Shown piece after piece: positions 23,966 to 52,499 of a stretch of DNA of 64,000 nt; the stretch's first letter is position 1; every line of letters starts with the position of its first letter. Below the pieces are notes generated by a model. The model made no database searches, was not told where the DNA came from, and worked only from the letters and a program-made list of their open reading frames with translations. A program made the translations under genes and the position numbers. Source of the DNA: a phage; the sequence record PZ386957.1. One strand, given 5' to 3'.

Positions 23966-23994
23966 AGTATAGGGGATCTCGCGATCCCCGTCAA
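23966..23994 (-). promoter_or_regulatory. sigma70-type early promoter
   Basis: Minus strand TTGACG-17-TATACT; spacer contains palindrome GGGGATCGCGAGATCCCC. Confidence 0.55.
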
Positions 23995-23998
23995 GCAT

Positions 23999-24547
23999 TT
24001 ATTTTAAATTTTTTCGAATGTATTCAGACCATTCCTTCCCTGTCAGTTCGGTCCCATTCTGGAAACTGAAATATTCATACGGCATCGAGTCAAGATAAAA
24101 CAGGATCATACATCGCGCCATATAATACCAATCACGATTAAAGTAAACTACGTTATCACCAGTACCATCAACCCCTTTATCATAACCATCGCTGGTACGG
24201 GCGACCCATTGAATAGTATCATTTTTCTCACGGATAGTCACAGGTTCCCAATATCCAGCACATCCAGCATGACCACACGAACAAGTAAGGAAATATTGCC
24301 CTTTTGCTTTGTTGTCATCCCATTCACGATGGATTGGTTCGATCTCGTGAAACAGTGCCAAACAATCATGATTATGCAACACTGGCTTACCATCAATCAA
24401 TGCATGGAATGTATACAAACGACCCGTAGACAAATAGCTATCCTCACGCTCAACCAGTTCAATAGCAATCTTTTTAGCTCGTTCTTTGTGTCGTTGTGCT
24501 TTACGCTTACGGTTTAATGATTTCATATTCACCTCACACATTATCAA
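23999..24547 (-). CDS. hypothetical protein (Cys/His-rich)
   Basis: 182 aa ORF between nrdD and nrdG; CSCGHAGCAGY motif. Confidence 0.55.
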   Translation of the reverse strand: MIMCEVNMKSLNRKRKAQRHKERAKKIAIELVEREDSYLSTGRLYTFHALIDGKPVLHNHDCLALFHEIEPIHREWDDNKAKGQYFLTCSCGHAGCAGYWEPVTIREKNDTIQWVARTSDGYDKGVDGTGDNVVYFNRDWYYMARCMILFYLDSMPYEYFSFQNGTELTGKEWSEYIRKNLK

Positions 24548-25083
24548 AGGTCGCGATATAGTACATTATGAAAATGAGAACTTGCATTACCAATATTGTA
24601 GATAACAAATTCTTCATCCGGCGCTTGCGCTACAAATTGAGTATGAGCAACCGCTACGACTTTAAAAATACGATCCGTGATCTTGTGCTTAATTTCTGCC
24701 CCTACTTCCATAGGAACATATTCATTTGTTTCTGTTTCAGTCGCAAAACAGCCATCTTCTTCATAAGCACGAACAAATCGGTCGCAATCAGTACGCTTAA
24801 CAAATTCAAGAGTATATAATTCTCGTGAATTGTCGGTATAGACCAATACAGAATTATTATGATAGCGAATCACATACAGGTTATTATCATCGTCAATTAC
24901 GCAAAAGCTACGGATTCCTTCGCCTTGACTCCAGCAGATATTAACCACCGTTCCTCTAATAAAAAAACTTTCCTTTAAATTAAAACTAGTCAATGTGCTA
25001 GCGTGCATTTTAACAACAACACCATCACCAATTTCCAGTTTACGAAGTTTAACTTCTTTGCTCAGTACACAAAACATCATCAT
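24544..25083 (-). CDS. hypothetical protein
   Basis: ORF track 24544..25131 trimmed to ATG 25083 (the MMMF start) downstream of the promoter at 25112-25139. Confidence 0.55.
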   Translation of the reverse strand: MMMFCVLSKEVKLRKLEIGDGVVVKMHASTLTSFNLKESFFIRGTVVNICWSQGEGIRSFCVIDDDNNLYVIRYHNNSVLVYTDNSRELYTLEFVKRTDCDRFVRAYEEDGCFATETETNEYVPMEVGAEIKHKITDRIFKVVAVAHTQFVAQAPDEEFVIYNIGNASSHFHNVLYRDL

Positions 25084-25111
25084 ATTGTCCTCTCTTTGTT
25101 TCGATGTGAGC

Positions 25112-25139
25112 ATTATACATGAGCTAATCATGTTGTCAA
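25112..25139 (-). promoter_or_regulatory. sigma70-type early promoter
   Basis: Minus strand TTGACA-16-TATAAT directly after the nrdD terminator. Confidence 0.55.
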
Positions 25140-25155
25140 CACCCCAAAACGAAAA

Positions 25156-25177
25156 AGCCGACCCTTTCGGATCGGCT
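25156..25177 (-). terminator. rho-independent terminator after nrdD
   Basis: AGCCGATCCGAAAGGGTCGGCT hairpin followed by a U-tract on the minus strand. Confidence 0.6.
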
Positions 25178-25182
25178 AAAAA

Positions 25183-27045
25183 TTACATGTGCTTAACGCG
25201 GTTTACCATCTCGGAGTGTTTCCCGTGGTTAAATGGACGCAGATCAACAGATCCAAGATATCCACTAACGCGGCGGATAACATTCATCTTTTCCAGATTG
25301 TCATTGCCGCAATCAGGGCAAACAAAACCAGACTCGGTCGCTCTCATTTCCTTATTAGATCCGCATACATGACATACATCAGAAGGAGTATTAACACCGA
25401 AGTAGTGCAATTTATCCATTGCATAGTCTACTACAGTTTCAAGACCTTTCAGGTTGTTTTTCATGTCTGGGAACTCAACATAAGAGATCATGCCACCGGA
25501 CGCCAGACAGTGATAATCTTTCTCAAAGTCGATTTTCTCAAACGGTGTAACCTTCCGGTCTACGTCAAGGTGGAATGAGTTGGTGTACCAGTCTTTATCG
25601 GTAGCACCCTTAACAATACCAAATTGCTCTCGGTCCAGTCGATTAAATCGATAGCAAAGGCTCTCGGCTGGCGTACCGTAAAGACTAAAACCAAGTCCGG
25701 TTTCGTCCTTCCATTTTTCAGTATAATGACGCAAGATCTTAAGAATATGTTTACCGTATCGCTGCGCATCTTCCGAATCAAACGGATGAACACCAAACAG
25801 GACGCTCAATACCTCATGTAAACCAATATACCCAAGAGAGATACTAGCGCGACCATCTTTCAGCACTTCCAAAATTTCATCGTTTTGATGAATACGGAAA
25901 AATGCACCTTCGGTATACAGTACAGGGGCAACATTGGCTTTAGCACCTTTTAAAGCGTCTACGCGACTCATGAGAGCATCAAAACAAATAGGCATACGAT
26001 TAGCTAGCTCTTGTTCGAATAGCTCAATTCTGCGCATTACAGACGCTTTACCAGCACGACGCGCGGCAATAAGGGCAATACGCGGAAGATTCAGAGTCAC
26101 AACACCCAAGTTATTACGTCCGTCTAATACTTCTTCGCCTTTCTCATTATGCCACACACCCAGGAAGCTACGACAACCCATCGGGCTAACCGGAACACTA
26201 GATCCGGTGATACTACGGTTATTCTTCGCAGAGATATAATCAGGGTAAAGACGCTTACTAGAACATTCCAATGCAAGTTGCTTAATGTCGTAGTTCGGAT
26301 CTTCCGGTTTAAGGTTTAATCCTTCTTCTAAGAACATCACCAGCTTAGGAAACACCGGAGTTATACCATCTTTACCTAAACCTTTAGTTCGAACTTTCAG
26401 GATCGCTTTCTGAATCAGTTTTTCTTCCCAGCTAGTACCCATACCAAAGGTTAAAGTCACAAAAGGCGTTTGACCGTTGGTGGAGAACAAAGTGTTGATT
26501 TCATATTCCAACGCTTGATACCCGTCTAAAGTTTCTTTTTCTGTCTTCTCTTGTGCATAGAGAGTATCAGCTTTGATTCCGTAGGTTTCGGCATCAGCAA
26601 GGTGTTTATGATATGTTTTCTCAACATACGGTGCTAACACCTGATCGATGTTTGCAATTGTGGTCCCGCCATATTGATGACTTGCCACCTGTGCGATAAT
26701 TTGAGCGGTTACAGCACAAGCAACGCCGATTGATCTCGGACTTTCGATTTGTGCACTACCCAATTTAAAACCATTCTCTAACATGTCCTTGAGATTAACA
26801 AGACAGCAGTTAGTAAACGGCATAGCGGGTGCATAATCCATATCATGATAATGAATATCACCGTCTACATGCGCTTTATAGATGTGCTCAGGTAACACGG
26901 TTTTAGCAATCTGTTTAGACACAGCGCCAGCAATCAGATCTCGACGTGTCGGGAATGTTCGCGCGTCTTTGTTCGCGTTCTCTTTGCTTACTTCGTTTTC
27001 TTTACCCGTTGCAATCTCTGTAATGTCTTTGATTAGTTTTTCCAT
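25183..27045 (-). CDS. nrdD: anaerobic ribonucleoside-triphosphate reductase NrdD (glycyl radical enzyme)
   Basis: 620 aa uninterrupted; C-terminal glycyl-radical motif RRVSGYLGS and CxxC...CxxC zinc site (CHVCG, CPDCG). Confidence 0.92.
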   Translation of the reverse strand: MEKLIKDITEIATGKENEVSKENANKDARTFPTRRDLIAGAVSKQIAKTVLPEHIYKAHVDGDIHYHDMDYAPAMPFTNCCLVNLKDMLENGFKLGSAQIESPRSIGVACAVTAQIIAQVASHQYGGTTIANIDQVLAPYVEKTYHKHLADAETYGIKADTLYAQEKTEKETLDGYQALEYEINTLFSTNGQTPFVTLTFGMGTSWEEKLIQKAILKVRTKGLGKDGITPVFPKLVMFLEEGLNLKPEDPNYDIKQLALECSSKRLYPDYISAKNNRSITGSSVPVSPMGCRSFLGVWHNEKGEEVLDGRNNLGVVTLNLPRIALIAARRAGKASVMRRIELFEQELANRMPICFDALMSRVDALKGAKANVAPVLYTEGAFFRIHQNDEILEVLKDGRASISLGYIGLHEVLSVLFGVHPFDSEDAQRYGKHILKILRHYTEKWKDETGLGFSLYGTPAESLCYRFNRLDREQFGIVKGATDKDWYTNSFHLDVDRKVTPFEKIDFEKDYHCLASGGMISYVEFPDMKNNLKGLETVVDYAMDKLHYFGVNTPSDVCHVCGSNKEMRATESGFVCPDCGNDNLEKMNVIRRVSGYLGSVDLRPFNHGKHSEMVNRVKHM

Positions 27046-27089
27046 TGTATCACCTATGAAAAAGCGGGATTTCTCCCGCTCGTTGATAG

Positions 27090-27584
27090 TTATTTTACCA
27101 GTTCTGCTAATTCTTTTTCCGCCGCTTCCAGTTCAGCTTTCAGTTGTTTGATCTCTTGTCGCTTCTTATTAGCGGCTTCCTGCTTACTATTTCGGATAAC
27201 CTGATCTAGATACAACTCCCAATCCTGAATATTTTTGATAATGTAGCCGTCAACATTAATTGGTCGGAGATTCAGTACAGCTTCCAGTTTAGTTGCAAAA
27301 ACTTTAATTGCTGGGGTGAAGTATTCATATTCGTTATCTTCAAACCAATAACCTAGACTTGCATTCTCAATACGAAGATGAAGTTTAAGATCAAGGTCTT
27401 TATCATCGGTATATAGGTCTTTTACACACCCCATAGAATTAACAACAACTTTAAAACGAATTTTATCTACACCACCAAAAACATCTTCAAGAATATCAGC
27501 AATTGAGCTATTAGCGCAAGATTGGTCGCTGAATGCGTCAAGGTTTTCTTTAGTTACAGTATACCAAACATCTTGTACCCACAT
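27090..27584 (-). CDS. hypothetical protein, related to the tandem-paralog family
   Basis: 164 aa; shares the VFATKL segment and C-terminal coiled-coil with the 20944..21444 protein. Confidence 0.55.
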   Translation of the reverse strand: MWVQDVWYTVTKENLDAFSDQSCANSSIADILEDVFGGVDKIRFKVVVNSMGCVKDLYTDDKDLDLKLHLRIENASLGYWFEDNEYEYFTPAIKVFATKLEAVLNLRPINVDGYIIKNIQDWELYLDQVIRNSKQEAANKKRQEIKQLKAELEAAEKELAELVK

Positions 27585-27615
27585 AATATAATCCTCTCGT
27601 TGTTAAGTGGGAGTA

Positions 27616-27643
27616 TTATAGCATACTCCCTTCGCATGTCAAG
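27616..27643 (-). promoter_or_regulatory. sigma70-type early promoter
   Basis: Minus strand TTGACA-16-TATAAT; -10 lies inside inverted repeat GGGAGTAT..ATACTCCC. Confidence 0.6.
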
Positions 27644-28817
27644 CACTAACTTTTTTCTTTACTGCTTTCACCTTCTGGCGAATTGCTCGAATCTCTTCGA
27701 TCTCTTTTTCAGTCTCTTTAACAATTTCTTTGCGATTCTGAATATCTGTATCGAGATTATCATCAAGTTTAGGCAGCATGTCAATCAAGAACTTTTTAAA
27801 GTCTTTCAGGTTTCGAATAACAGCACCTTCGCCCATTACCGCAACACCCACACCATCCGGCAGATCACCAAACAGCTTAACCAGTTCAGACAGATGATCA
27901 TGATCTTCTAGTGCTTCTTCCGGTTCAGATGGCAGTTCAACAAAGTTATAACGTTCATCATTGCTGATCAAGTGATACCAGCAAAGCCCGAAAGATTTCG
28001 GTGTATATTCTACACCATCAATTTCAACCGCGTCAACACTTCCATAATCATCTACTTTAGTTACCTTAAATCCTTGTCCCAGCTTTTGAACAATTTCAAC
28101 AACATGACTTGATACAGTTTCAGCGGTAAACCAATATGGCAAATTATGCTGATTTGGCTTGTAGCGTTCACCTACTTTAAATCTCTGACCATCCGCTTGC
28201 ATAGAATGAAATTGTTGTTTCGTGATTTCCGCGAAGTATTCAAATTCGCCACCATCAAACACACAAGCCCATTGATCACAAAAACGATCTGCCTTAACAG
28301 TTTCACCTTTCGCGGTGATCATGGTAGCTGATCCGTGCAATTCTTCTTCAACTAAAAAGCCATATTCGACAAAATCAACAAGTTTCATAGCTTCTTTGTG
28401 ATCTGGATCATGCTCTCCCCAGAATCGCTTAAATTCTTGCAAACCTTCTGGGGTAAACGAATAACATTTACCTTTTTCAAAGTAAGTCGGCATTGCATCC
28501 TCTTTCTTGTTCATCGCTTCGTATGCCTCTTTTGAGATGCGTTTAAAGTATTTACGCTCATTGTGCATAATCATAGTAGCCCAATAATCAACAATATCAT
28601 TAGCGGAATAAACTACATCTCCAGCTTCAATAGTAATAACATGACCGTGGTCATCTTTTTCTAATACTTTAAAGCCCTTTTCTACGATTTCAGCAACCCG
28701 AATATGACCACGGCGCGAAGCATCGGTCAGAATAATTGAATAGCGAGAAAAGTCTAGAAACTCATCTTTACCGCCTTCACGGAATGCATAGTAATGACCT
28801 TCAAAGAATTTAGCCAT
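27639..28817 (-). CDS. tandem-paralog family protein (three repeat domains)
   Basis: 392 aa; three internal copies of the roughly 85-aa repeat domain, each ending in an ERKYF-like motif; C-terminal lysine-rich helix. Confidence 0.65.
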   Translation of the reverse strand: MAKFFEGHYYAFREGGKDEFLDFSRYSIILTDASRRGHIRVAEIVEKGFKVLEKDDHGHVITIEAGDVVYSANDIVDYWATMIMHNERKYFKRISKEAYEAMNKKEDAMPTYFEKGKCYSFTPEGLQEFKRFWGEHDPDHKEAMKLVDFVEYGFLVEEELHGSATMITAKGETVKADRFCDQWACVFDGGEFEYFAEITKQQFHSMQADGQRFKVGERYKPNQHNLPYWFTAETVSSHVVEIVQKLGQGFKVTKVDDYGSVDAVEIDGVEYTPKSFGLCWYHLISNDERYNFVELPSEPEEALEDHDHLSELVKLFGDLPDGVGVAVMGEGAVIRNLKDFKKFLIDMLPKLDDNLDTDIQNRKEIVKETEKEIEEIRAIRQKVKAVKKKVSA

Positions 28818-28848
28818 AATATAATCCTCTCGTTGTTTAGATGGGAGT

Positions 28849-28877
28849 ATCTTACTACTCCCGTTTCATCATGTCAA
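28849..28877 (-). promoter_or_regulatory. sigma70-type early promoter
   Basis: Minus strand TTGACA-17-TAAGAT inside inverted repeat GGGAGTA..TACTCCC. Confidence 0.5.
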
Positions 28878-29440
28878 GCGTTAAATGACTTTTGGATCTC
28901 TTTCAGTTCAGCTACTTTATCGGCGCTATATTTTGCTTGATGTTCCATGCGCTTAAGCTCACCTTTGATATAGGTTTCTAGCTTAGGTTTATTCTCAATC
29001 AGAAAATCTTTCAAGTCATCGGCATTTTTAAAGTATAGCTGATTATCAAAGCTAAAATCTTCCAGCGTCAAGGATACCAAAGAAGATTTCGCAAACAAGT
29101 TAATCAGATCTTCCAGAGATTCTTCTTTCTTAACTGGTTTCATTTCTTCAAACTGCTTTTTAGTGATGCGTTTAAAGTATTTGCGCTCGTTTGCAGCAAT
29201 CAGAACAGATGCACCTTCATACCCATGAGTTTCTACCAGATACACACGCCCCATCGCATCAACAGTGAGAACTTTAAAGCCGTTACAAAGCACGTCATAC
29301 AAGAACTTATTATGTTGCGGACATCGTTTGATAAATTCTGCGGCTGTTTCTGCACTACGGAAAGTGTAATAACGACCTCGTTCAAAAGCAGCATCATTTG
29401 AAGACTTAGCCGGATACAATTTATACGTTTTCTGTACCAT
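28874..29440 (-). CDS. tandem-paralog family protein
   Basis: ORF track 28874..29458; start refined to ATG 29440 (GAGG RBS); contains NGFKVLTVDAMGRVYLVE and ERKYFKRI repeat signature. Confidence 0.6.
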   Translation of the reverse strand: MVQKTYKLYPAKSSNDAAFERGRYYTFRSAETAAEFIKRCPQHNKFLYDVLCNGFKVLTVDAMGRVYLVETHGYEGASVLIAANERKYFKRITKKQFEEMKPVKKEESLEDLINLFAKSSLVSLTLEDFSFDNQLYFKNADDLKDFLIENKPKLETYIKGELKRMEHQAKYSADKVAELKEIQKSFNA

Positions 29441-29454
29441 AATATAATCCTCTA

Positions 29455-29727: not shown

Positions 29728-29758
29728 TGTTGATTCTCCTTCTTGATTAGATGGGAGT

Positions 29759-29787
29759 ATTTTACTACTCCCATTTCTTATTGTCAA
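29759..29787 (-). promoter_or_regulatory. sigma70-type early promoter
   Basis: Minus strand TTGACA-17-TAAAAT inside inverted repeat GGGAGTA..TACTCCC. Confidence 0.5.
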
Positions 29788-29790
29788 CTA

Positions 29791-30570: not shown

Positions 30571-30578
30571 GTTATACC

Positions 30579-32949: not shown

Positions 32950-33019
32950 AATATAATCCTCACATCGTTCATTTGATGCGGTTATTATAGGATAACCGCA
33001 TTTTCATATCAACAGTTTT

Positions 33020-33394
33020 TTAAAAATCTTCTTCCGGTTTATATCGACCGTCATCGACTGGTTTTGGACTGAATCCTTTATGCGTGCGCGGCTTCGCTTC
33101 CGGTTTACCAGCAATCATCAAACCAAAACATTTCAGCCCCTTATAACACATAACAATATCAACCACGGTCCACGTTATAGGCCATACGATTGCAGCAATA
33201 CAAAATGCTCCTGTATCGACCTCTTTGGTGTCCTTGTCGAATCTGGCATACAAGCAGAATACTAGATACGAGATCATTGCACCAGTAGTCCAGATATAAA
33301 GTACATTAACAATATCTTGTGTTGTCACATTGTCCTCCTTACATGTCTTGCAGTGCGTAAAAGCATTTTTCTTCGTAGTCATAGAAAATGTCAA
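33020..33394 (-). CDS. membrane protein, start uncertain
   Basis: Hydrophobic helices (MISYLVFCLYARF, AFCIAAIVWPITWTVVDIVMCY); 5' end overlaps the upstream gene, so the true start is probably internal. Confidence 0.45.
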   Translation of the reverse strand: MTFSMTTKKNAFTHCKTCKEDNVTTQDIVNVLYIWTTGAMISYLVFCLYARFDKDTKEVDTGAFCIAAIVWPITWTVVDIVMCYKGLKCFGLMIAGKPEAKPRTHKGFSPKPVDDGRYKPEEDF

Positions 33395-33617: not shown

Positions 33618-33650
33618 TTTGATTCTCCTTAAGAAAGTGTGTTTCGTTTT

Positions 33651-33679
33651 GATGTGTGTAGTATAGGGGATACGTGATC
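33651..33679 (-). promoter_or_regulatory. sigma70-type early promoter
   Basis: Minus strand TTGACA-17-TATACT; spacer palindrome GGGGAT..ATCCCC. Confidence 0.55.
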
Positions 33680-33696
33680 CCCTGTCAACAACTTTT

Positions 33697-34026
33697 TTAT
33701 GATTTTAGTGAATTAACCACTACATCAAAATGATGTACAGAGCACACCTTACGAAACACATATTCATCATGTTTAGGAATCGCCCCTAACCGCTCTATTT
33801 CGCTTGCTGACACGATAAACTGTTTATCTGGTGCATATGCCTTGCGTGCTTCAACAACGCACGGGAAACGCGTTTCAGAGAGTTCTGGATAGTTTTCTGA
33901 ATCCATCAGGACAATGAATACCCTGTTACATTGATTGTAGAATCCTGTTTTTGATTTCATCAAGTTTTCTTCTCTGTACAATTCGTGCAATCTTCCTTTC
34001 ATGATTTCGTTGGTTCTTGTCTTCAC
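33697..34026 (-). CDS. hypothetical protein, start uncertain
   Basis: 109 aa ORF overlapping the upstream gene by about 100 nt. Confidence 0.4.
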   Translation of the reverse strand: MKTRTNEIMKGRLHELYREENLMKSKTGFYNQCNRVFIVLMDSENYPELSETRFPCVVEARKAYAPDKQFIVSASEIERLGAIPKHDEYVFRKVCSVHHFDVVVNSLKS

Positions 34027-35309: not shown

Positions 35310-35338
35310 CTTTGATTCTCCTTAGTTGGTATGTGCGC

Positions 35339-35366
35339 ATTATAACATTGGGATTTTCATTGTCAA
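35339..35366 (-). promoter_or_regulatory. sigma70-type early promoter
   Basis: Minus strand TTGACA-16-TATAAT. Confidence 0.55.
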
Positions 35367-35410
35367 CACCTAAAAACAAAAAGGCTATCCCGAAGGACAG
35401 CCCATAAAAA

Positions 35411-36505: not shown

Positions 36506-36543
36506 TTTGATTCTCCTAGAAAGTGTCGTGTTTCGATGTGTGC

Positions 36544-36572
36544 ATTATGATATATCCAGATCCGGCTGTCAA
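36544..36572 (-). promoter_or_regulatory. sigma70-type early promoter
   Basis: Minus strand TTGACA-17-CATAAT. Confidence 0.55.
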
Positions 36573-36591
36573 CACTTTCTAAGAAAAATTT

Positions 36592-37757: not shown

Positions 37758-37786
37758 TTTGGTTCTCCTTTGTTGTCGATGTGTGC

Positions 37787-37815
37787 ATTATGCTATACCT
37801 TATTCTTGTTGTCAA
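37787..37815 (-). promoter_or_regulatory. sigma70-type early promoter
   Basis: Minus strand TTGACA-17-CATAAT. Confidence 0.55.
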
Positions 37816-37831
37816 CACCTAAAAACGAAAA

Positions 37832-37854
37832 AGCCACCCTTTCGGATGGCTTTT
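37832..37854 (-). terminator. rho-independent terminator after the 715-aa gene
   Basis: AGCCATCCGAAAGGGTGGCT hairpin followed by a U-tract on the minus strand. Confidence 0.6.
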
Positions 37855-40032: not shown

Positions 40033-40431
40033 CTAAGCCAGCTTAGTGAGTTTATAGATGGTTTTAAAGCATAGAACTTTAATATCGTCTAAAACGCTCT
40101 GTAGAGAGCTATCAACATCATTATAAATCTCACTTGCCATTTGCGCTAATTCCTGCAAATAGGCAACTTCGCTAATCTCCTTTCGGACGACCAACGTCGG
40201 TTGATATCTTCCGGTAATACCGATATTAGTTTCCGTGAAAGTATCAACCAATTCTTGCATTTCAAGATAGAACTCTTCTAGCGCCTTATGTTTTGCGTAA
40301 GACCCCGGACCAGTTACCCCAAAATGCGCAGAATGCATATAAGTAACGCTCATTAGGCATTCACCAATAAAGCGGTCCACATTATTAGCCTTTCCTTCAT
40401 CGGAAGTTTTTCTAAATTCGCTGAATTTCAA
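40033..40431 (-). CDS. hypothetical protein
   Basis: 132 aa ORF. Confidence 0.5.
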   Translation of the reverse strand: MKFSEFRKTSDEGKANNVDRFIGECLMSVTYMHSAHFGVTGPGSYAKHKALEEFYLEMQELVDTFTETNIGITGRYQPTLVVRKEISEVAYLQELAQMASEIYNDVDSSLQSVLDDIKVLCFKTIYKLTKLA

Positions 40432-40721
40432 TTTCGTCGATTCTCCACATTATAAGCAACTACAAATTGCTTCGCAGCATATTCGCCCATCATAAAACAT
40501 TGTCTTGCATCCATACACCTACTACGTGCATATGTTTTCATTAAATGCTCATGAAATTTTTGGCTAGTTTCAACGGATGGTTGGATCTTGCTTATATAGA
40601 CAATCATCGCACCATCAAAATAATCGGTAAAATCACCGACTGGATTATTTTGGTCGGCACTTACACTACCGACTGCCATTAGACAAAATGCTGCGGTTAA
40701 AGTTTTACGAATAAATGACAT
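40428..40721 (-). CDS. small secreted/periplasmic protein
   Basis: 97 aa; N-terminal signal-peptide-like sequence MSFIRKTLTAAFCLMAVGSVSA; TATAAATA-like element upstream. Confidence 0.5.
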   Translation of the reverse strand: MSFIRKTLTAAFCLMAVGSVSADQNNPVGDFTDYFDGAMIVYISKIQPSVETSQKFHEHLMKTYARSRCMDARQCFMMGEYAAKQFVVAYNVENRRN

Positions 40722-43299: not shown

Positions 43300-43384
43300 T
43301 AATTTCTCCTGTTTGGCTTAACTTTCTGATTCCATAATATAGCCCTATCACCAGAAAGTCAAGCATTAATTTAACCAATTTCCA

Positions 43385-44120: not shown

Positions 44121-44147
44121 TTGGTTCTCCCTTGTTTCGATGGGGGT

Positions 44148-44177
44148 ATATTACTACCCCCCGTTTCATGTTGTCAA
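44148..44177 (-). promoter_or_regulatory. sigma70-type early promoter
   Basis: Minus strand TTGACA-17/18-TAATAT inside inverted repeat GGGGGTA..TACCCCC. Confidence 0.5.
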
Positions 44178-44438
44178 CTACTTTTTCAAGAATTTTTTAA
44201 TTGCGTTCCAAAGACCTTTATTCTCAGGTTGTTTTGGTTCTTCGATCAGTGTCCATGTTCGACCGTCTAAGTGTGCACAATTTTTAAGGCAAATAAAAAT
44301 CTGGTGTCCCTTATCATCACGGATATAACCACTATTCGCAAATCTTTCATGTGGTGTATATTCATACAGTGTATTTGGTGTAATATACTTGCGGTTACTA
44401 TAAGGTGTCATCACATACATCATGGTATTAACTCCCAT
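44178..44438 (-). CDS. hypothetical small protein
   Basis: 86 aa ORF. Confidence 0.45.
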   Translation of the reverse strand: MGVNTMMYVMTPYSNRKYITPNTLYEYTPHERFANSGYIRDDKGHQIFICLKNCAHLDGRTWTLIEEPKQPENKGLWNAIKKFLKK

Positions 44439-46909: not shown

Positions 46910-46937
46910 TATTCACCCCCTTTGTGAGTGATAATAT

Positions 46938-47129
46938 TTAGATTCCGGTGATCCTGCATAGAGTTCTTGTATTAGCACCAATCAGGATAGCATTAACGAC
47001 AACCATTCCCCAATCAACCCACGGATTATTATAAATGCTGAATCCGTTTGCAAGGCCAAATACAAGCATTCCGGTACACATACTCAGAGCAATAATCAAC
47101 ATCACGGTAAAACCAAATGCAAATTTCAT
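46938..47129 (-). CDS. small membrane protein
   Basis: 63 aa, two hydrophobic helices; directly upstream of the M15 peptidase gene. Confidence 0.45.
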   Translation of the reverse strand: MKFAFGFTVMLIIALSMCTGMLVFGLANGFSIYNNPWVDWGMVVVNAILIGANTRTLCRITGI

Positions 47130-47130
47130 A

Positions 47131-47361
47131 TTATTTTCCTTTTCTCTGTTTACGTTTATAAAAGTAATACATTACCTCATCGCGTCCGGTGATCCAACAT
47201 GCTAGGGCAGTAAACAAGTTTACAATTCCCAACACACCTACGGATGCGGCGCTATCAACGGACATAGGAACAGTAAAGGCCATAGCTAGCATCGCAACGC
47301 CACAAATGATATTAAGCACCATTATAATAAGACCGAAGAAAACCATTGTCAATCCTCCCAA
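47131..47361 (-). CDS. small membrane protein
   Basis: 76 aa, hydrophobic, basic C-terminus. Confidence 0.45.
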   Translation of the reverse strand: MGGLTMVFFGLIIMVLNIICGVAMLAMAFTVPMSVDSAASVGVLGIVNLFTALACWITGRDEVMYYFYKRKQRKGK

Positions 47362-47540
47362 ATAAGAAAACCAACAATCACACCCATAATAAGAGAGGAT
47401 GCACCACTAATCAAGCAACCCGCGCCAAGTGATTCCCACCAGATCAGGGAAGCGACAATAACGCAAAATCCCCAGACTACCGCAATTATAACATAGACAA
47501 ACATAATCCAAAATAGATACTTGTTCATAATAAATCCCAT
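47349..47540 (-). CDS. small membrane protein
   Basis: 63 aa, hydrophobic. Confidence 0.45.
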   Translation of the reverse strand: MGFIMNKYLFWIMFVYVIIAVVWGFCVIVASLIWWESLGAGCLISGASSLIMGVIVGFLIWED

Positions 47541-47713
47541 TCACCAATCAAATATGAAAATAGCCAAATAAACAGAAACGAGACAATTGATCCAGCAAGC
47601 AAAATAATATTAGAGAATCCGCCGTTTATCCAGTCGATCAAACAGAATATTCCAGTATAGAAACACAACCCAATTACAAAACAGACGATAAGCAACCATA
47701 GGTAAAACGCCAT
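47525..47713 (-). CDS. small membrane protein
   Basis: 62 aa, hydrophobic. Confidence 0.45.
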   Translation of the reverse strand: MAFYLWLLIVCFVIGLCFYTGIFCLIDWINGGFSNIILLAGSIVSFLFIWLFSYLIGEWDLL

Positions 47714-47774
47714 AGAAAGCCCTCCAGTGAGCTAAATTAGTGCGGGTAGTACATTCTCCTACCCGCGTTGTTAA

Positions 47775-47933
47775 TCATCGTATAGCGTGTTCTATGGCGA
47801 CTCCTACAAGGCCACTAACAACACCAGTACAGAAAGCAACTAGAGCATTCATTCGGTCTTTAGGGATCATTGCAAACAGTACAACACCCACACAGAAAGC
47901 CATCACCATTGAAGTTAACATTTGTTCCATCAT
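47775..47933 (-). CDS. small membrane protein (52 aa, not in ORF track)
   Basis: ATG immediately after the upstream stop; hydrophobic MMEQMLTSMVMAFCVGVVLFAMIP...; antisense to plus-strand ORF 47740..47955. Confidence 0.4.
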   Translation of the reverse strand: MMEQMLTSMVMAFCVGVVLFAMIPKDRMNALVAFCTGVVSGLVGVAIEHAIR

Positions 47934-47935
47934 TA

Positions 47936-48274
47936 TTACACCTTTAAAGTCATAGACGCATAAACATTAATACCAGGCCAATTGGGATCACAATTATACT
48001 CAACATCCCACAAATAAAGCGGTTTGGATGTATCAGCCAAGTTTTTAAAATCTTCTACCCACATTTCAAGGCTATAGGATGGATAAACTAGGCTATCATA
48101 TCCACCGTAACGTTGGCCTACTGGTCTGTCAGTAAAAACTACCTCAAGATCCGGTAATTCTTTTTCTAGGATAACCGCCAGCGCATAAATCAGGCGGTCT
48201 TCCTTGTTACGCTGCCGTAGGACCGTTGTCAGTTGGTTCTTCTGGTTCACTAGCAAGTACCTCCACATTTTCAC
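47936..48274 (-). CDS. hypothetical protein, start uncertain
   Basis: 112 aa ORF with non-ATG first codon; overlaps the upstream gene. Confidence 0.4.
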   Translation of the reverse strand: MKMWRYLLVNQKNQLTTVLRQRNKEDRLIYALAVILEKELPDLEVVFTDRPVGQRYGGYDSLVYPSYSLEMWVEDFKNLADTSKPLYLWDVEYNCDPNWPGINVYASMTLKV

Positions 48275-48527
48275 AGAATGAAATTTTCACGGACACAATT
48301 TTACCATAAGTGAAGAATGAATATACATTATCGAGATATTCAACATCACCTACAATCACATCAAACTGCGGGTCAGCCACTGCCGCAACATATTCTACCA
48401 GTTCATCAAGAGAATGCAACTTAATTTCATCAATTCGGCTATATTTGGTTGCATCTTTAATTTTAAAACCACGTTCTTTCAGCTTATCAATCAGAATTTC
48501 ACGCGGAGTTTCAAACAGTTTGCTCAT
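48207..48527 (-). CDS. hypothetical protein
   Basis: ORF track 48207..48545; start refined to ATG 48527 (GAGG RBS). Confidence 0.5.
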   Translation of the reverse strand: MSKLFETPREILIDKLKERGFKIKDATKYSRIDEIKLHSLDELVEYVAAVADPQFDVIVGDVEYLDNVYSFFTYGKIVSVKISFCENVEVLASEPEEPTDNGPTAA

Positions 48528-48549
48528 AATATAATCCTCACACAATTAA

Positions 48550-48744
48550 TCAATGGTCAATAATCTTACACATTACAATTGAAAGAACAAAGACAGCAAC
48601 CCACATATAGATCCCAGCAATCAGGGCAATTTCAATCTCACAGTATCCAAGAAGTACAACAGGAATAAAAACAAACATACAGACCAGCGCAAAGAAACTA
48701 GCAAAGGCGCTCGAAAATCCGATGGCAGTATTAGTAATCTTCAT
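48550..48744 (-). CDS. small membrane protein
   Basis: 64 aa, hydrophobic. Confidence 0.45.
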   Translation of the reverse strand: MKITNTAIGFSSAFASFFALVCMFVFIPVVLLGYCEIEIALIAGIYMWVAVFVLSIVMCKIIDH

Positions 48745-48750
48745 ATTAAG

Positions 48751-48948
48751 TCATCTCACAGTTTTATAAATGAAAACAATAAAATCCCAGACAAAAAAGA
48801 CAGTGAAAATAATCATCGTCAAGACAGTAAACACTGTCAGATTTTCATCGTTAGTTAATTCATAGTCGCCCATCCATACAATCACAAGATATAGCATTGA
48901 AAGAACGGAAGCACCTACGAAGTTGAAAAACATATTCTTGAGCGTCAT
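48751..48948 (-). CDS. small membrane protein
   Basis: 65 aa, hydrophobic. Confidence 0.45.
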   Translation of the reverse strand: MTLKNMFFNFVGASVLSMLYLVIVWMGDYELTNDENLTVFTVLTMIIFTVFFVWDFIVFIYKTVR

Positions 48949-48949
48949 A

Positions 48950-49132
48950 TTAACAATCCTCGCGGCTTAAGTCAACTGCAATTGCATACAGCATAATGAA
49001 TATGCTAGCAGATCCTAGAATCAATGCACCTTCACATGTTGTAACCCGCTCGTCAAAGTATAGCATCAGCCATCCGAGGATGTTAAAGGCGCATACAGCG
49101 CCTATGTTGGCTAACCAATTAATCTTTTTCAT
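48950..49132 (-). CDS. small membrane protein
   Basis: 60 aa, hydrophobic. Confidence 0.45.
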   Translation of the reverse strand: MKKINWLANIGAVCAFNILGWLMLYFDERVTTCEGALILGSASIFIMLYAIAVDLSREDC

Positions 49133-49140
49133 ATTGTACC

Positions 49141-49467
49141 TTAGAAAGAAACTGTTTTCAAGAAATCCAGATTTTCAGTGCCGAAAGTAGAAAAGTAGTG
49201 TTTTCCTTTTTCGGTTTTAGAGAAAGCGATTGTCTTCTCTACATGGTGACGGAAGCCAGACAGACGATCACCCAGATCAAGGCGGCAAGCGTAAGTAGTG
49301 CCGTTTTCGAAAGTAACCTCGATTTGAGTTTTGTCATATTCGCCTTCATAGGCTTTTGCTGCGGCGTCCTGTGCTTTACGCTCGAAGTCTTCGAAGTGGA
49401 ATACTTCGTTTGCGTTAGCGAATACGGAAGATTCAGAGAAGATAACTTTAACAGATACTGGTTTCAT
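49141..49467 (-). CDS. hypothetical protein
   Basis: ORF track 49141..49536 trimmed to ATG 49467 (AGGAG RBS), downstream of the promoter at 49505-49533. Confidence 0.5.
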   Translation of the reverse strand: MKPVSVKVIFSESSVFANANEVFHFEDFERKAQDAAAKAYEGEYDKTQIEVTFENGTTYACRLDLGDRLSGFRHHVEKTIAFSKTEKGKHYFSTFGTENLDFLKTVSF

Positions 49468-49504
49468 TTTGATACTCCTTTGTGTGTTTCGTTTCGATGG
49501 GTGT

Positions 49505-49533
49505 ATTATGCTATACACCCTATCGTATGTCAA
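49505..49533 (-). promoter_or_regulatory. sigma70-type early promoter
   Basis: Minus strand TTGACA-17-CATAAT. Confidence 0.55.
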
Positions 49534-49540
49534 CAACTTT

Positions 49541-49729
49541 TTAGTCTTTTTTCATAATTTCTAGGGCAGCTTCTACCGCACCTTTCCAACCTTCCCACAT
49601 GATGGACATGGTAAGGAAGTTAAAGCACCCGCAGGAATCGGCCTTTTTAGAAATAAACCATTCTACAAACTCTGTGCTAATGCCATTCTCTTTAGCAGAT
49701 TCGCGCAGTTGTTCAATCTGGTCTTCCAT
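49541..49729 (-). CDS. hypothetical small protein
   Basis: 62 aa ORF. Confidence 0.45.
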   Translation of the reverse strand: MEDQIEQLRESAKENGISTEFVEWFISKKADSCGCFNFLTMSIMWEGWKGAVEAALEIMKKD

Positions 49730-49738
49730 AGTATCACC

Positions 49739-49927
49739 TCAACACTTAACGTTATTCAAACGGTTTTGAAAATAAACATAACATGCATAATTCTGTTTTG
49801 GCTGTACCGTATCAGATAAGCACGCTTTTACCGCTTCGCGATCCGATGGATCTACACCCTCAGCTTTAAGTAGTGCTAAGATCTGGTAGTAGCGTTCTCT
49901 CAGTTGCGCTAATGGTTTCTCTCCCAT
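49739..49927 (-). CDS. hypothetical small protein
   Basis: 62 aa ORF. Confidence 0.45.
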   Translation of the reverse strand: MGEKPLAQLRERYYQILALLKAEGVDPSDREAVKACLSDTVQPKQNYACYVYFQNRLNNVKC

Positions 49928-49936
49928 AATACCCCC

Positions 49937-50158
49937 TTACAGTTGATCAGCAATGTAAGCATGACAAGCTCGAAGTTTCATTAATGCACTACCTTTCACT
50001 TCGCCTACGATGTTCATAACTTCTAAGCGGTCAGATGGATTCATTTTAGAGCACCAGATCTGGTTAGCCAGTTCCAGCTTGCTCATATTAGGTTCCATCT
50101 CAAACAGTTCACGCTCAAAGTCGATAATTTCTTTTGCTGCTTCTTTAAAGTTGATCAT
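49937..50158 (-). CDS. hypothetical small protein
   Basis: 73 aa; GGGAGA RBS; promoter at 50188-50216. Confidence 0.5.
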   Translation of the reverse strand: MINFKEAAKEIIDFERELFEMEPNMSKLELANQIWCSKMNPSDRLEVMNIVGEVKGSALMKLRACHAYIADQL

Positions 50159-50187
50159 TTTGATTCTCCCGTTCAGTTGATGGGTGT

Positions 50188-50216
50188 ATTGTAGGGGAGT
50201 TGTCCTCCCCTGTCAA
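50188..50216 (-). promoter_or_regulatory. sigma70-type early promoter
   Basis: Minus strand TTGACA-17-TACAAT; spacer inverted repeat GGGGAGG..CTCCCC. Confidence 0.55.
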
Positions 50217-50226
50217 CACTTTTTTA

Positions 50227-50412
50227 TTAGAAATATGCAATATAGTTTGCCAGTCCTACAGAGTCATCATTCGGCATTGCTTTTACTGCCAGTTCAAATC
50301 CTGCTTCAACTTTCTGTTTAGCGGATTCTTCGTTATAACCCCAGATCACCAGAATAGCTACTACGTTTTCTTTGCTTACTGCTTTCAGTGCTTTAGTGAT
50401 GCGACGTGCCAT
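50227..50412 (-). CDS. hypothetical small protein
   Basis: 61 aa; AGGAGA RBS; promoter at 50459-50487. Confidence 0.5.
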   Translation of the reverse strand: MARRITKALKAVSKENVVAILVIWGYNEESAKQKVEAGFELAVKAMPNDDSVGLANYIAYF

Positions 50413-50458
50413 AATTTGATTCTCCTAGTTAGAAAGTGTATCTCGTTTCGATGGGTGT

Positions 50459-50487
50459 ATTATGCTATAGACCGGATCTGGTGTCAA
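50459..50487 (-). promoter_or_regulatory. sigma70-type early promoter
   Basis: Minus strand TTGACA-17-CATAAT. Confidence 0.55.
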
Positions 50488-50514
50488 CAACTTTTTTAAA
50501 AAAATTTAGGTAAT

Positions 50515-50540
50515 AAAAAAGCCACTCCGAAGAGTGGCTT
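50515..50540 (-). terminator. rho-independent terminator
   Basis: GCCACTC-TTCGG-AGTGGC hairpin followed by a U-tract on the minus strand. Confidence 0.6.
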
Positions 50541-50542
50541 AT

Positions 50543-50690
50543 AGGGAAGGTAGCGAATCTTCCTTGTCTCCAACCTGCTAGCGGCCTAGCAAGTGAATGC
50601 TTTAGCGTACCGGATTACCCCCATACGCTGTAATAAATGCGGCTAGGTGACGTCCAAATCATTCTAACCGCGCTGTTTTTAGTTCACTAT
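50543..50690 (-). ncRNA. candidate small structured RNA (speculative)
   Basis: About 150-nt GC-rich ORF-free interval between a TATAAATA late-promoter-like element (about 50683-50690) and the terminator at 50515-50540; three predicted hairpins; no tRNA T-loop. Confidence 0.25.
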
Positions 50691-50908
50691 TATTTATATA
50701 GCTTTCTATCGCTACGTTTCCGGTCTTCTTCCTTGATACAATTAAATGCATCAAACAGACACATACCGCTGATAGTGAACATGATCAGGTTTTCGACGAT
50801 ATCCCACGTTTTAGCCCCTGTGCAGATATTCCAAACAGTCATAAAAGCAAATAGTGCAGAAGAGATCACAAGCATGATACTTGCTAAGATATAAAAAGTC
50901 ATTTTCAT
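50690..50908 (-). CDS. small membrane protein
   Basis: 72 aa, hydrophobic. Confidence 0.45.
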   Translation of the reverse strand: MKMTFYILASIMLVISSALFAFMTVWNICTGAKTWDIVENLIMFTISGMCLFDAFNCIKEEDRKRSDRKLYK

Positions 50909-51099
50909 GGTTTTACCTCAATTCTTCGATATTCATCACACATCCACGCAGTAAGCAAGAATCCCATCACATAAGCAACAAAATACGTTAATGCTTCTTC
51001 TGGTTCGGTGCTATGCGCCATCATCAGACCAGCGAGAAAGGTCTTAACAATTACATTTAAAATAATTAGCCACGCAAATAATTTCATCGTTTGCCCCAT
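50905..51099 (-). CDS. small membrane protein
   Basis: 64 aa, hydrophobic. Confidence 0.45.
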   Translation of the reverse strand: MGQTMKLFAWLIILNVIVKTFLAGLMMAHSTEPEEALTYFVAYVMGFLLTAWMCDEYRRIEVKP

Positions 51100-51308
51100 T
51101 TCGGACGAGATTTTTCAAATTTATACATTCCGTAACAATCTCGGATCATCCACGTAACAAGAGCACCAGTCAATACAGAAAGTACACAGAAAAAGTAAAA
51201 CGGTCCAGTTGCATTGTCAACATGAGCAAGCCAGGTAAAGAAAGCACATGCTAAGAACGTAAAGAACATCATAAAACACAGGAAAGCGAAATATTTTATG
51301 CTACTCAT
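51084..51308 (-). CDS. small membrane protein
   Basis: ORF track 51084..51326; start refined to ATG 51308 (MSSIKYFAFLCF). Confidence 0.45.
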   Translation of the reverse strand: MSSIKYFAFLCFMMFFTFLACAFFTWLAHVDNATGPFYFFCVLSVLTGALVTWMIRDCYGMYKFEKSRPKWGKR

Positions 51309-51411
51309 AGCGCCACCATACAACAAATCATAAGAAAGCCCAACGCAATAAGAATTGCATCAAATTTAGTGAACTCCGGTCCACCTATCAACATCATTCG
51401 TTCTATCTCGT

Positions 51412-51657
51412 TCATAGCGTACATACCCATCTGAAAGCTCCACATAAAGCGATCAGTAGACTAGGTATAAACGAGACTAAAACAAGATAACAAAAATCAT
51501 CTAAGGTAACACCGGAATAGCTACCAACTGTAATCACACCGATGATCAGACACAGAAAGAAAACAAATGCAATCAGAAACAAAGTATTGCTAAACAGTTT
51601 AGTGATCATTAGACACCCCACGACGGTCAATTTCAAAAACTTTCTTATCACCAACAA
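51412..51657 (-). CDS. small membrane protein, start uncertain
   Basis: 81 aa hydrophobic ORF overlapping the upstream gene. Confidence 0.4.
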   Translation of the reverse strand: MLVIRKFLKLTVVGCLMITKLFSNTLFLIAFVFFLCLIIGVITVGSYSGVTLDDFCYLVLVSFIPSLLIALCGAFRWVCTL

Positions 51658-51808
51658 AGCAGGTCACTACCGCCTCGTTGACTTCCGCAAATTGTTGTGT
51701 TACCCACTTAAGGTCATTGCGCATCAATGTTTTATTAATAACAAATGTTGTGCCTTTCTTATCCTTACCCATAAATTTTGCTTTAACCACATCAAAATCA
51801 TATTCCAT
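51599..51808 (-). CDS. hypothetical small protein
   Basis: 69 aa ORF with GGTGA RBS. Confidence 0.45.
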   Translation of the reverse strand: MEYDFDVVKAKFMGKDKKGTTFVINKTLMRNDLKWVTQQFAEVNEAVVTCFVGDKKVFEIDRRGVSNDH

Positions 51809-51817
51809 ATTATCACC

Positions 51818-51988
51818 TTATTTGCTAATCGCTAAACCCAATCCAAAGAGAGCACCCGATGCTACAGTATATCCGAAAGTTTCAAGGGCAGTAAAGATAT
51901 CGAAGCCACCAGCTAACAGAGTTGCAGCAAACATAGAGCCACCTGCGAACATAAACACATTTCCAAAAGTTTTAGCAATAATTTTCAT
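51818..51988 (-). CDS. small membrane protein (56 aa, not in ORF track)
   Basis: ATG 51988 with AGGAGA RBS downstream of a promoter at about 52015-52048; hydrophobic MKIIAKTFGNVFMFAGGSMFAATLLAGGFDIF... Confidence 0.4.
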   Translation of the reverse strand: MKIIAKTFGNVFMFAGGSMFAATLLAGGFDIFTALETFGYTVASGALFGLGLAISK

Positions 51989-52054
51989 GTTGATTCTCCT
52001 CTCGTTTGTTTGTGGGGGTATCTTACTACCCCCGTTTCATGTTGTCAATTGTTT

Positions 52055-52432
52055 TTAAGAAAATTTTACTTCGTCTACAATGTCTTTCATGACATTGATT
52101 TCCATTCCGGTCAGAACACGTTGGAACATGTGCTGCACATACGCTTTCAGGTATCCATTTGATGGCTTGCTATCAAAAGTCTTTTTAGTGTAGTAGTCAT
52201 CACCGAAAGCTACTGTAATTACATTTTCGTCGTCGTTCCAAGCGATATAAGCAAATTTGCCGTTATCCCAGAAGCGAGCACTAATTGCTACTTTTGTTGA
52301 ATCGAATCCTACTTCGCTGTGAGATTCAAGAACTACTTGCGTGCCAGTTTCTTTATGAATGTAGTAGCGGGATACTAAGTCAAAGTTACGGGTGTAGTGA
52401 CATTCGAAGTTATCTTTAAACATCATCATCAT
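52055..52432 (-). CDS. hypothetical protein
   Basis: 125 aa; AGGAGA RBS; promoter at 52471-52499. Confidence 0.5.
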   Translation of the reverse strand: MMMMFKDNFECHYTRNFDLVSRYYIHKETGTQVVLESHSEVGFDSTKVAISARFWDNGKFAYIAWNDDENVITVAFGDDYYTKKTFDSKPSNGYLKAYVQHMFQRVLTGMEINVMKDIVDEVKFS

Positions 52433-52470
52433 TTTTGATTCTCCTAAGTGTGTTTCGTTTCGATGTGTGC

Positions 52471-52499
52471 ATTATGCTATAGTCGTTTATGGTTGTCAA
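52471..52499 (-). promoter_or_regulatory. sigma70-type early promoter
   Basis: Minus strand TTGACA-17-CATAAT. Confidence 0.55.

Follow-up and report, generated by a model that had tools for sequence, protein, structure and literature searches.

The stretch of DNA analyzed here, 64,000 nucleotides of the phage record PZ386957.1 (the window, from here on), carries on its minus strand, between positions 23966 and 52499, a family of promoter sites that are, judging by their sequence, PeSLs (promoter-early stem-loops), a feature known since 2010 for the RB49/Phi1 group of phages. The window was compared by megablast with the GenBank phages in four pieces (1-22000, 23000-38000, 37800-53000, and 53000-64000). 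About 60 phage records matched at 87 to 95% identity, among them RB49, Phi1, GEC-3S, ECD7, JK32, and LF73P4, identifying the window as part of an RB49-like T4-type coliphage of the genus Krischvirus; Phi1, RB49, GEC-3S, JK32, and LF73P4 are 89 to 95% identical to it. Positions 1-22000 encode conserved replication functions, the core formed by DNA polymerase, helicase, gp46/47, and UvsX. Positions 23000-53000 are the counterpart of the Phi1 nrdG-to-gp57 hyperplastic region, with small hypothetical genes densely packed on the minus strand, and 53000-64000 carry late baseplate genes, the strand switch being visible in the GC skew. No Rfam family reached the gathering threshold in the whole window, and ARAGORN found no tRNA in it.

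By combining a relaxed scan for the two promoter hexamers with the sequence context, we counted exactly 17 minus-strand promoter sites in 23966-52499, the number that a first-pass annotation of this DNA had given as a minimum. The first bases of their -35 boxes, by which we refer to the sites, are 52499, 52048, 50487, 50216, 49533, 44177, 43362, 37815, 36572, 35366, 33688, 33012, 29787, 28877, 27642, 25139, and 23994. At all 17, the hexamers match the consensus in 10 to 12 of 12 bases, and the spacers measure 16 to 18 nt. The pattern proposed in that annotation, TTGACR-N16/17-TAYAMT, described 6 of the 17 sites correctly; the boxes of the others are more varied, and the literal pattern misses them because the -10 box often reads CATAAT or TAAGAT. 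The -10 variants falling outside it were CATAAT (five sites), TAAGAT (two sites), TAATAT, TAAAAT, and TATTAT, and two sites have deviant -35 boxes (TTGACT and TTGATA). Over the whole window, this strict pattern was matched 10 times, always on the minus strand, compared to 0.27 matches expected; 6 of the 10 lie inside 23966-52499.

As had also been proposed, a ribosome-binding site and a start codon follow each promoter: all 17 sites have a Shine-Dalgarno (SD) sequence and then, 56 to 75 nt past the start of the -35 box, the ATG of an open reading frame (ORF) of 50 to 392 codons. The stop codon of the preceding gene lies 0 to 30 nt ahead of the -35 box or within it, and at three sites it falls in the box or directly against it. 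The 25 nt ahead of the -35 box are 73% A+T, compared to 60% for the window, and the consensus there reads ..aaAg.tGTTGACA.

A profile hidden Markov model was built from the 17 sites. Sixteen of them scored E = 3e-11 to 9e-20, high scores that hold by construction since the profile was made from these same sites, and site 43362 reached only 1.8e-4. Searching the whole window with this profile gave no further strong member, and in a direct-repeat search blind to promoters the largest repeat families consisted of pieces of the 17 sites. Two family members lie outside the 17-site region, at 16552 (with a spacer hairpin) and at 9746. Overall, the 28.5-kb hyperplastic region accounts for 17 sites and the 23-kb replication core for two or three, and in the late baseplate region no site matched the profile or preceded a gene. 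The sites had initially been called near-identical, which overstates their likeness. Indeed, the best pairs share exact matches of 20 to 27 nt and the median pair 9.5 nt, and what the family has in common is shared blocks of sequence.

An exhaustive search for stems from -70 to +50 around each -35 box gave a strong inverted repeat at 16 of the 17 sites, in agreement with the initial remark that many of them carry one. Three of these repeats lie in the spacer, seven over the -10 box, and five upstream, and one encloses the promoter. The first three groups define the following classes.

Class A, minus strand, sites 52499, 50487, 37815, 35366, and 25139: canonical intrinsic terminator with a 9- to 11-bp stem, a tetraloop, and a T-tract, 14 to 53 nt upstream of the -35 box
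Class B, minus strand, sites 50216, 33688, and 23994: 7-bp stem of the GGGG..CCCC type that fills the spacer
Class C, minus strand, sites 52048, 49533, 44177, 33012, 29787, 28877, and 27642: 7- to 10-bp stem whose 6-nt loop contains most of the -10 box and whose 3' arm is the discriminator

The individual elements, including the class B member at 16552, are as follows.

52433..52535, minus strand: class A PeSL; terminator 52535-52516 (ACCCCGAA-tttt-TTCGGGGT plus T-tract); -35 TTGACA 52499-52494; -10 CATAAT 52476-52471; SD; ATG 52432
51989..52060, minus strand: class C PeSL; -35 TTGACA 52048; -10 TAAGAT in the loop of GGGGGTA/TACCCCC (52033-52014); ATG 51988
50413..50540, minus strand: class A PeSL; terminator 50540-50519 (AAGCCACTC-ttcg-GAGTGGCTT plus T-tract); -35 50487; -10 CATAAT; ATG 50412
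50159..50230, minus strand: class B PeSL; -35 50216; spacer hairpin AGGGGAG-gacaa-CTCCCCT (50211-50193); -10 TACAAT; ATG 50158
49468..49547, minus strand: class C PeSL; -35 49533; GGGTGTAT-agcata-ATACACCC (49520-49499) across the -10 CATAAT; ATG 49467
44121..44190, minus strand: class C PeSL; -35 44177, immediately preceded by the stop codon of the upstream gene; GGGGGTA-gtaata-TACCCCC (44161-44142); ATG 44120
43300..43375, minus strand: divergent member at 43362 (TTGACT-17-TATTAT); whole promoter enclosed by a 14-bp long-range inverted repeat; ATG 43299
37758..37854, minus strand: class A PeSL; terminator 37854-37829 (AAAAGCCATCC-gaaa-GGGTGGCTTTT); -35 37815; -10 CATAAT; ATG 37757
36506..36590, minus strand: PeSL lacking a stable hairpin in this phage; -35 36572; -10 CATAAT; ATG 36505; spacer unlike those of its orthologues
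35310..35403, minus strand: class A PeSL; terminator 35403-35382; -35 35366; -10 TATAAT; ATG 35309; holds the right boundary (35333) of the gp38 cassette
33618..33700, minus strand: class B PeSL; -35 33688; AGGGGAT-cacgt-ATCCCCT (33683-33665); -10 TATACT; ATG 33617; close paralogue of Phi1 PeSL206/205
32950..33025, minus strand: class C PeSL; TTGATA 33012; ATGCGGTTAT-cctata-ATAACCGCAT (33001-32976) across the -10 TATAAT; ATG 32949
29728..29790, minus strand: class C PeSL; -35 29787; ATGGGAGTA-gtaaaa-TACTCCCAT (29774-29751); ATG 29727
28818..28880, minus strand: class C PeSL; -35 28877; spacer contains the stop codon of the upstream ORF; GGGAGTA-gtaaga-TACTCCC (28862-28843); ATG 28817
27585..27645, minus strand: class C PeSL; -35 27642 holds the upstream stop codon; GGGAGTAT-gctata-ATACTCCC (27630-27609); ATG 27584
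25084..25177, minus strand: class A PeSL; terminator 25177-25156 after nrdD; -35 25139; -10 TATAAT; ATG 25083
23924..24010, minus strand: class B PeSL; TTGACG 23994; GGGGATC-gcga-GATCCCC (23989-23972); -10 TATACT; ATG 23923; close paralogue of Phi1 PeSL193/191
16497..16565, minus strand: extra class B member outside the range; TTGACG-GCGGGGA-gaaa-TCCCCGT-TATACT; ATG 16496

At 15 of the 17 sites, the hairpin has a folding energy (dG) of -9 kcal/mol or lower, compared to 5% of 95-nt windows taken at random from that strand (binomial P~5e-18). Hairpins inside the 40-nt promoter core were found at 10 of the 17 sites, compared to 1.2% of background windows (P~1e-15) and 0.03 per set in shuffled sequences. 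Folding these ten core hairpins with ViennaRNA gave the expected stem as the minimum-energy structure each time, with z-scores of -1.9 to -5.5. These values bear on the simplest alternative, that AT-rich phage DNA often contains sigma-70-like hexamers and that the hairpins are coincidental. A loose consensus scan indeed returned 67 promoter-like sites in 20 kb where 56 were expected, a count so close to expectation that weak matches alone are uninformative. However, the strict pattern was far in excess (10 versus 0.27, on a single strand), and the profile gave E values of 1e-11 to 1e-20, although it had been made from these sites. Additionally, the hairpins are enriched at P~1e-15 to 1e-18, and the orthologous positions are conserved in relatives. 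The strict-pattern, hairpin, and orthology statistics thus refute a compositional artifact, to which we assign practically no chance.

These features are in good agreement with the PeSLs, which were described as repeated motifs of the hyperplastic regions of RB49 and Phi1 (Arbiol et al. 2010, Genome Biol Evol 2:140, PMC2839356; Comeau et al. 2014, PMC4122927). By definition, a PeSL combines a stem-loop of the polyG/polyC type with a sigma-70 consensus that is preceded by an AT-rich tract, and has an SD and ATG at its 3' end (PMC2839356). The stem-loop can take five positions (including the spacer, over the -35 or -10 box, upstream of -35, and downstream of -10), most commonly the spacer or the -10 box, and the PeSLs, about 51 or 52 per genome, cluster in hyperplastic regions, mostly ahead of small genes of unknown function (PMC2839356). 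The window sites share with them the hexamers and their spacing, the AT-rich tract, the stem-loop, the bounds set by a stop codon and an SD/ATG, the clustering in a hyperplastic region, and orthology. Since PeSLs were described in 2010 in this same genus, the window sites represent a further copy of a known feature and not a discovery.

Regarding orthology, positional counterparts of 16 of the 17 sites are present in Phi1 and in an RB49 assembly, and the annotation of GEC-3S independently marks promoters and terminators at the orthologous places. Among the Phi1 intergenic regions tested by Arbiol et al., PeSL206/205 reads TTGACAGGGGATCACCGATCCCCTATACT; Phi1 PeSL193/191 is TTGACGGGGGTCGGGAGATCCCCTATACT, and the Phi1 212/210 element is TTGACAGGGGATCGGTGATCCCCTTATAAT. 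All three are of class B and differ by a few bases, mostly in the loop, from sites 33688 and 23994. The wild-type Phi1 PeSL206/205 clone yielded about 13,000 Miller units in E. coli from a promoterless lacZ vector, and most other clones acquired -35 or -10 mutations (PMC2839356). In the same study, the stem-loop of PeSL211/210 cut downstream lacZ as strongly as rrnB T1, and the formation of mini-circles was reported for PeSLs (PMC2839356). According to Nolan et al. 2006, the early consensus of RB49 agrees with the 5' ends that Desplats et al. 2002 mapped for early transcripts.

The consensus hexamers, the AT-rich upstream tract, the orthologues in Phi1, RB49, and GEC-3S, and the reporter and 5'-end data published for the group all support the initial assignment of the sites as early sigma-70 promoters, and we infer that they would be used early in this particular phage too. 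The accompanying proposal that most of the small genes are separate transcription units was not supported. About 70 to 75 minus-strand genes share 17 promoters, about four genes per promoter, and there are runs of up to about a dozen minus-strand genes without a promoter of the PeSL family.

Compared to GEC-3S, Phi1, RB49, and LF73P4, substitution rates were 1.2% in the stems, 1.5% in the hexamers, 4.7% in the loops, and 7.0% in the other spacer positions; since the four comparisons share phylogeny, this conservation of the stems is supportive and does not amount to a formal test. At sites 36572, 37815, 49533, and 44177, the spacers are swapped or mosaic among orthologous PeSLs, a pattern that fits an exchange between paralogous cassettes. 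A scan of IMG/VR with a PeSL pattern of 23 specified bases gave seven stretches on three contigs and no evidence of the exact family beyond this group.

Taken together, we consider it highly probable that PeSLs are composite early-promoter/stem-loop cassettes, which insulate transcription units and can be used as recombination substrates. Such a cassette would span about 60 to 130 bp between two genes and would comprise the upstream stop codon, an AT-rich UP-like tract, and a near-consensus sigma-70 promoter, from which the unmodified host RNA polymerase would transcribe immediately upon infection. In its downstream part, a short leader with the conserved sequence ..CAYCGAAAC.. would be followed by a ribosome-binding region that is likewise conserved and reads GGAGAATCAAAATG or GAGGATTATATTATG. 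Each cassette would hold one G+C-rich stem-loop ahead of the predicted start, either beside the promoter (class A) or laid on its core (the spacer in class B, the -10 box in class C). Every hairpin sits between the upstream stop codon and the predicted +1 and is therefore present only in RNA that reads through from the upstream block; in this readthrough RNA, it may act as a terminator, an attenuator, or a 3'-end barrier separating neighboring early units. The shared homology blocks and the hyperplastic location would additionally make the cassettes substrates for phage homologous recombination, by which the flanked genes could be moved, deleted, or swapped.

The GAGGATTATATTATG translation-start block is found in 13 copies on the minus strand, compared to 0.04 expected in the window (e.g., 27582-27596, 28815-28829, 32947-32961, 22253-22267, and 53956-53970), ahead of PeSL-first genes as well as of internal ones.

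No site combines an upstream terminator, found at 5 sites, with a core hairpin, found at 10; given these counts, the hypergeometric chance of zero overlap is 66/19448 = 0.003. The five class A hairpins are canonical terminators by sequence, and the lack of co-occurrence argues that the core hairpins stand in for such terminators and may be functionally equivalent to them.

The same distribution bears on the suggestion made in the first-pass annotation that the palindromes could be operators. On this reading, a dimeric phage or host repressor would bind the repeats of the spacer or the -10 box and switch the early promoters off or on in a coordinated manner. The repeats of classes B and C are indeed perfect Watson-Crick palindromes at the classical operator position over the core promoter. 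Furthermore, GGGG..CCCC recurs, the stems are conserved like the hexamers, and a DNA-binding protein for GGGG...CCCC was speculated upon by Arbiol et al. (PMC2839356). However, the half-sites differ (GGGGATC, GGGGAG, GGGGGTA, GGGAGTA, GGGTGTAT, and ATGCGGTTAT), and the loop length (4 to 6 nt) and the register relative to the -35 and -10 boxes vary. Moreover, five promoters of the family have a canonical RNA terminator upstream and no core palindrome, and no promoter carries both. This variation of the palindromes in sequence and position, together with their complete separation from the upstream terminators, leads us to regard operators as very unlikely. The published assays point the same way, since a class B element was still active at about 13,000 Miller units in E. 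coli and a class B stem-loop alone lowered downstream lacZ like rrnB T1 (PMC2839356).

GATC, the Dam site, is present in five spacers of the window compared to 1.7 expected (P~0.03, for sites that are not independent), for example at 23972-23989, 33665-33683, 50465-50480, and 36550-36565. In the second Phi1 hyperplastic region (118-134 kb), 7 of 13 promoters have a GATC, a count confounded by shared ancestry. The phage encodes a Dam methylase, and spacer GATC is absent from the account of Arbiol et al. 2010 (PMC2839356). Its frequency may simply reflect shared ancestry.

The second role suggested for the repeats was that of recombination hot spots. This hypothesis is already in the literature, with mini-circle evidence (PMC2839356), and in the window the breakpoints were not significantly enriched at PeSLs. 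In the indel test, chained alignments of 22500-53500 to five relatives gave 13 distinct indel or replacement events with about 23 breakpoints. The event boundaries at or near PeSLs are listed below.

35333: inside PeSL 35366; right boundary of the gp38 cassette 35333-36284
44127: SD/ATG edge of PeSL 44177; start of the segment 43871-44127 that is replaced in relatives
33614: ATG of PeSL 33688; end of the LF73P4 homology
25062: 21 bp into the first gene past PeSL 25139; start of a replaced segment
37899: about 40 bp from the terminator of PeSL 37815

The gp38 adhesin cassette (terminator, gp38, terminator, and class A promoter, 35333-36284) is missing from LF73P4; the genes on either side of it are connected there by just one PeSL, of class B (TTGACACGGGGAGAAATCCCCGTATAAT). 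gp38 is a host-range gene bounded by PeSLs. Other events were gene-precise deletions or hypervariable adhesin segments, and homing-endonuclease insertions (HNH or AP2 type, 600 to 820 bp) were seen in relatives at three points unrelated to PeSLs:

30581/30675: homing insertion in GEC-3S
45356/45374: homing insertion in LF73P4 and JK32
46535/46613: homing insertion in RB49 and JK32

These data also bear on a more specific proposal, that the stem-loops are DNA-level recombination signals, with a hairpin or cruciform recognized by a recombinase or by endonuclease VII, and that the cassettes serve mainly to shuffle genes, any insulation being secondary. Mini-circles and PeSL-flanked ORFans that differ between Phi1 and RB49 have been published (PMC2839356), four or five of the events in the window have a boundary at a PeSL (35333, 44127, 25062, 33614, and 37899), and the spacers of orthologous PeSLs are mosaic or swapped. 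On the other hand, breakpoint enrichment at the PeSLs of the window is not significant, and about 100 bp of shared homology would recombine without needing a hairpin. Stems of 7 to 10 bp are also short for stable cruciform extrusion. Furthermore, no dedicated recombinase is identified in the PeSL papers (PMC2839356; PMC4122927).

Mismatches within the stems gave no distinction between RNA and DNA either: 33 unique hairpins, obtained from 109 different promoter cores of the window and of 13 loci, contained 2 G.T, 2 A.C, and 1 other mismatch, counts that do not separate RNA-level from DNA-level constraint. Three of the five stem substitutions among orthologues are A-to-G changes giving G.U, all at promoter position -6; since this position is a polymorphic R across the family, we did not rely on them. 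Covariation among the paralogous hairpins was set aside as circular, the hairpins having been chosen for their pairing. Overall, we judge DNA-level signals to be unlikely, and recombination at the PeSLs of the window would, on our preferred reading as insulating cassettes, proceed through their shared homology.

Relatives differ by two indels in 34264-35008 (minus strand), which holds three tandem paralogous ORFs of 82 to 84 amino acids: one is a 140-bp event of the unequal-crossover type (34447/34518), and the other a 394-bp segment missing here at 34940. PeSL 37815 is directly preceded by a 715-amino-acid ORF (37864-40011, minus strand), which JK32 also has (JK32_00086). Phi1, RB49, GEC-3S, and LF73P4 lack this ORF, Phi1 ORF084.1 being only its 3' remnant. 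It is probably found in UPWr_E1, Brandy, and G2248 too, as these cover 96 to 97% of 37800-53000.

Several observations weigh against the reading of PeSLs as insulating and recombining cassettes. Four or five of the 13 events have a boundary no more than 40 bp from a PeSL; PeSL intervals make up about 9% of the region, so that about two boundaries are expected and the trend is suggestive and not significant. Several indels involve no PeSL, being either insertions of homing endonucleases or gene-precise deletions. Within the family, site 43362 is only a weak member, and site 36572 is the sole one without a stable hairpin. The literature search gave a terminator test for one class B stem-loop only, and the cited transcript evidence belongs to the RB49/Phi1 group and not to this phage. 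Finally, the class C hairpins are followed by only 0 to 2 U in 8 to 9 nt and are therefore no canonical intrinsic terminators; for them, termination or a barrier function would have to operate without a U-tract.

This last point leads to the possibility that class C hairpins are 3'-exonuclease barriers stabilizing the upstream message after processing, for instance after a RegB cut at the GGAG of the downstream SD. T4 RegB is known to cut at GGAG. In addition to the 0 to 2 U behind the stems, this proposal draws on the GGAG contained in the ribosome-binding block GGAGAATCAAAATG and on the regB gene, which lies in this region in Phi1 and JK32. However, the complementary distribution with true terminators fits both readings, and the class B element that was assayed behaved as a strong terminator-like element despite having no clean U-tract. 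We therefore regard such barriers as possible, though not probable. A broader variant, in which class C and perhaps also the spacer type would not be terminators at all but a distinct cis-element, i.e., a RegB-coupled stabilizer of RNA 3' ends or a DNA hairpin read by a phage protein that times promoter shut-off or targets recombination, has in our estimate a small chance of being right.

Other elements were observed in the region. A 176-nt ORF-free stretch (50515-50690, minus strand) lies between the gene 50908..50690 and PeSL 50487. It folds at -64.7 kcal/mol (z = -4.2), ends in a canonical terminator, and contains no credible ORF. By blastn in "distant" mode, each of the 59 Krischvirus records containing it showed 95 to 99% identity, compared to about 92% for its flanks. 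Across seven phages, its 3' 89 nt show one variable column (the final T, missing in one). The stretch has one compensatory pair. No Rfam match at the gathering score and no tRNA was found in this stretch, which looks like a candidate unannotated small RNA. Additionally, a TATAAATA box (the T4-type late-promoter consensus) is located at about 40740-40760 (minus strand), in the gap of 62 nt that precedes the rI homologue 40721..40428. G+C-rich intergenic stem-loops without a sigma-70 promoter are present on the minus strand at 47710-47778 (GCGGGTAG..CTACCCGC) and 46456-46523 (GGGGAGA..TCTCCCC) and represent "stem-loop only" relatives of the PeSL hairpins; another terminator copy is found at 45378-45416.

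For the annotation of this phage, the sites delimit about 17 early transcription units of about four genes each in the hyperplastic region. They also mark likely exchange points of accessory cassettes, including that of the gp38 host-range adhesin, among therapeutic RB49-like phages.

The closest known system is that of the RB49/Phi1 PeSLs, with which the window sites share the genus, the genomic region, the architecture, and the GGGG..CCCC stems (PMC2839356). The differences are at the strain level only: spacers are swapped or mosaic (36572, 37815, 49533, and 44177), one hairpin is lost, and the flanking cassettes differ (the 715-amino-acid ORF, the gp38 cassette, and the replaced gene starts). 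The PeSL-like elements of T4/PST, of KVP40/nt-1, and of the T-even internal-protein loci are likewise composite terminator/promoter repeats of hyperplastic regions, for which modular shuffling was proposed (PMC4122927). However, their authors consider them analogues and not homologues, and they have T4-type early promoters and weaker, AT-rich stem-loops without polyG/polyC stems (PMC4122927). The T4 early promoters themselves are similar in being host sigma-70 dependent and very strong, in having an A-rich UP-like tract at -40 to -44, and in serving small early genes (Nolan et al. 2006). Unlike them, with their GTTTAC-like -35 box, the RB49 group favors a G at -33, giving (G)TTGACA (Nolan et al. 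2006), and embedded G+C-rich hairpins are not described for the T4 promoters. Single accessory genes with their own promoter and terminator are also known as lambdoid morons (Hendrix et al. 2000) and as integron cassettes. Morons lack a shared repeated linker sequence. The circular intermediates of integrons were proposed as an analogy for PeSL cassettes, but integrons require an integrase and attC, and no such enzyme is known for PeSLs. In coliphage N4, the early promoters also have an inverted repeat inside them, which is extruded as a DNA hairpin and recognized by the virion-carried phage RNA polymerase; the PeSLs of the window differ from these in having an ordinary sigma-70 consensus and in belonging to a family that includes promoters without a core hairpin.

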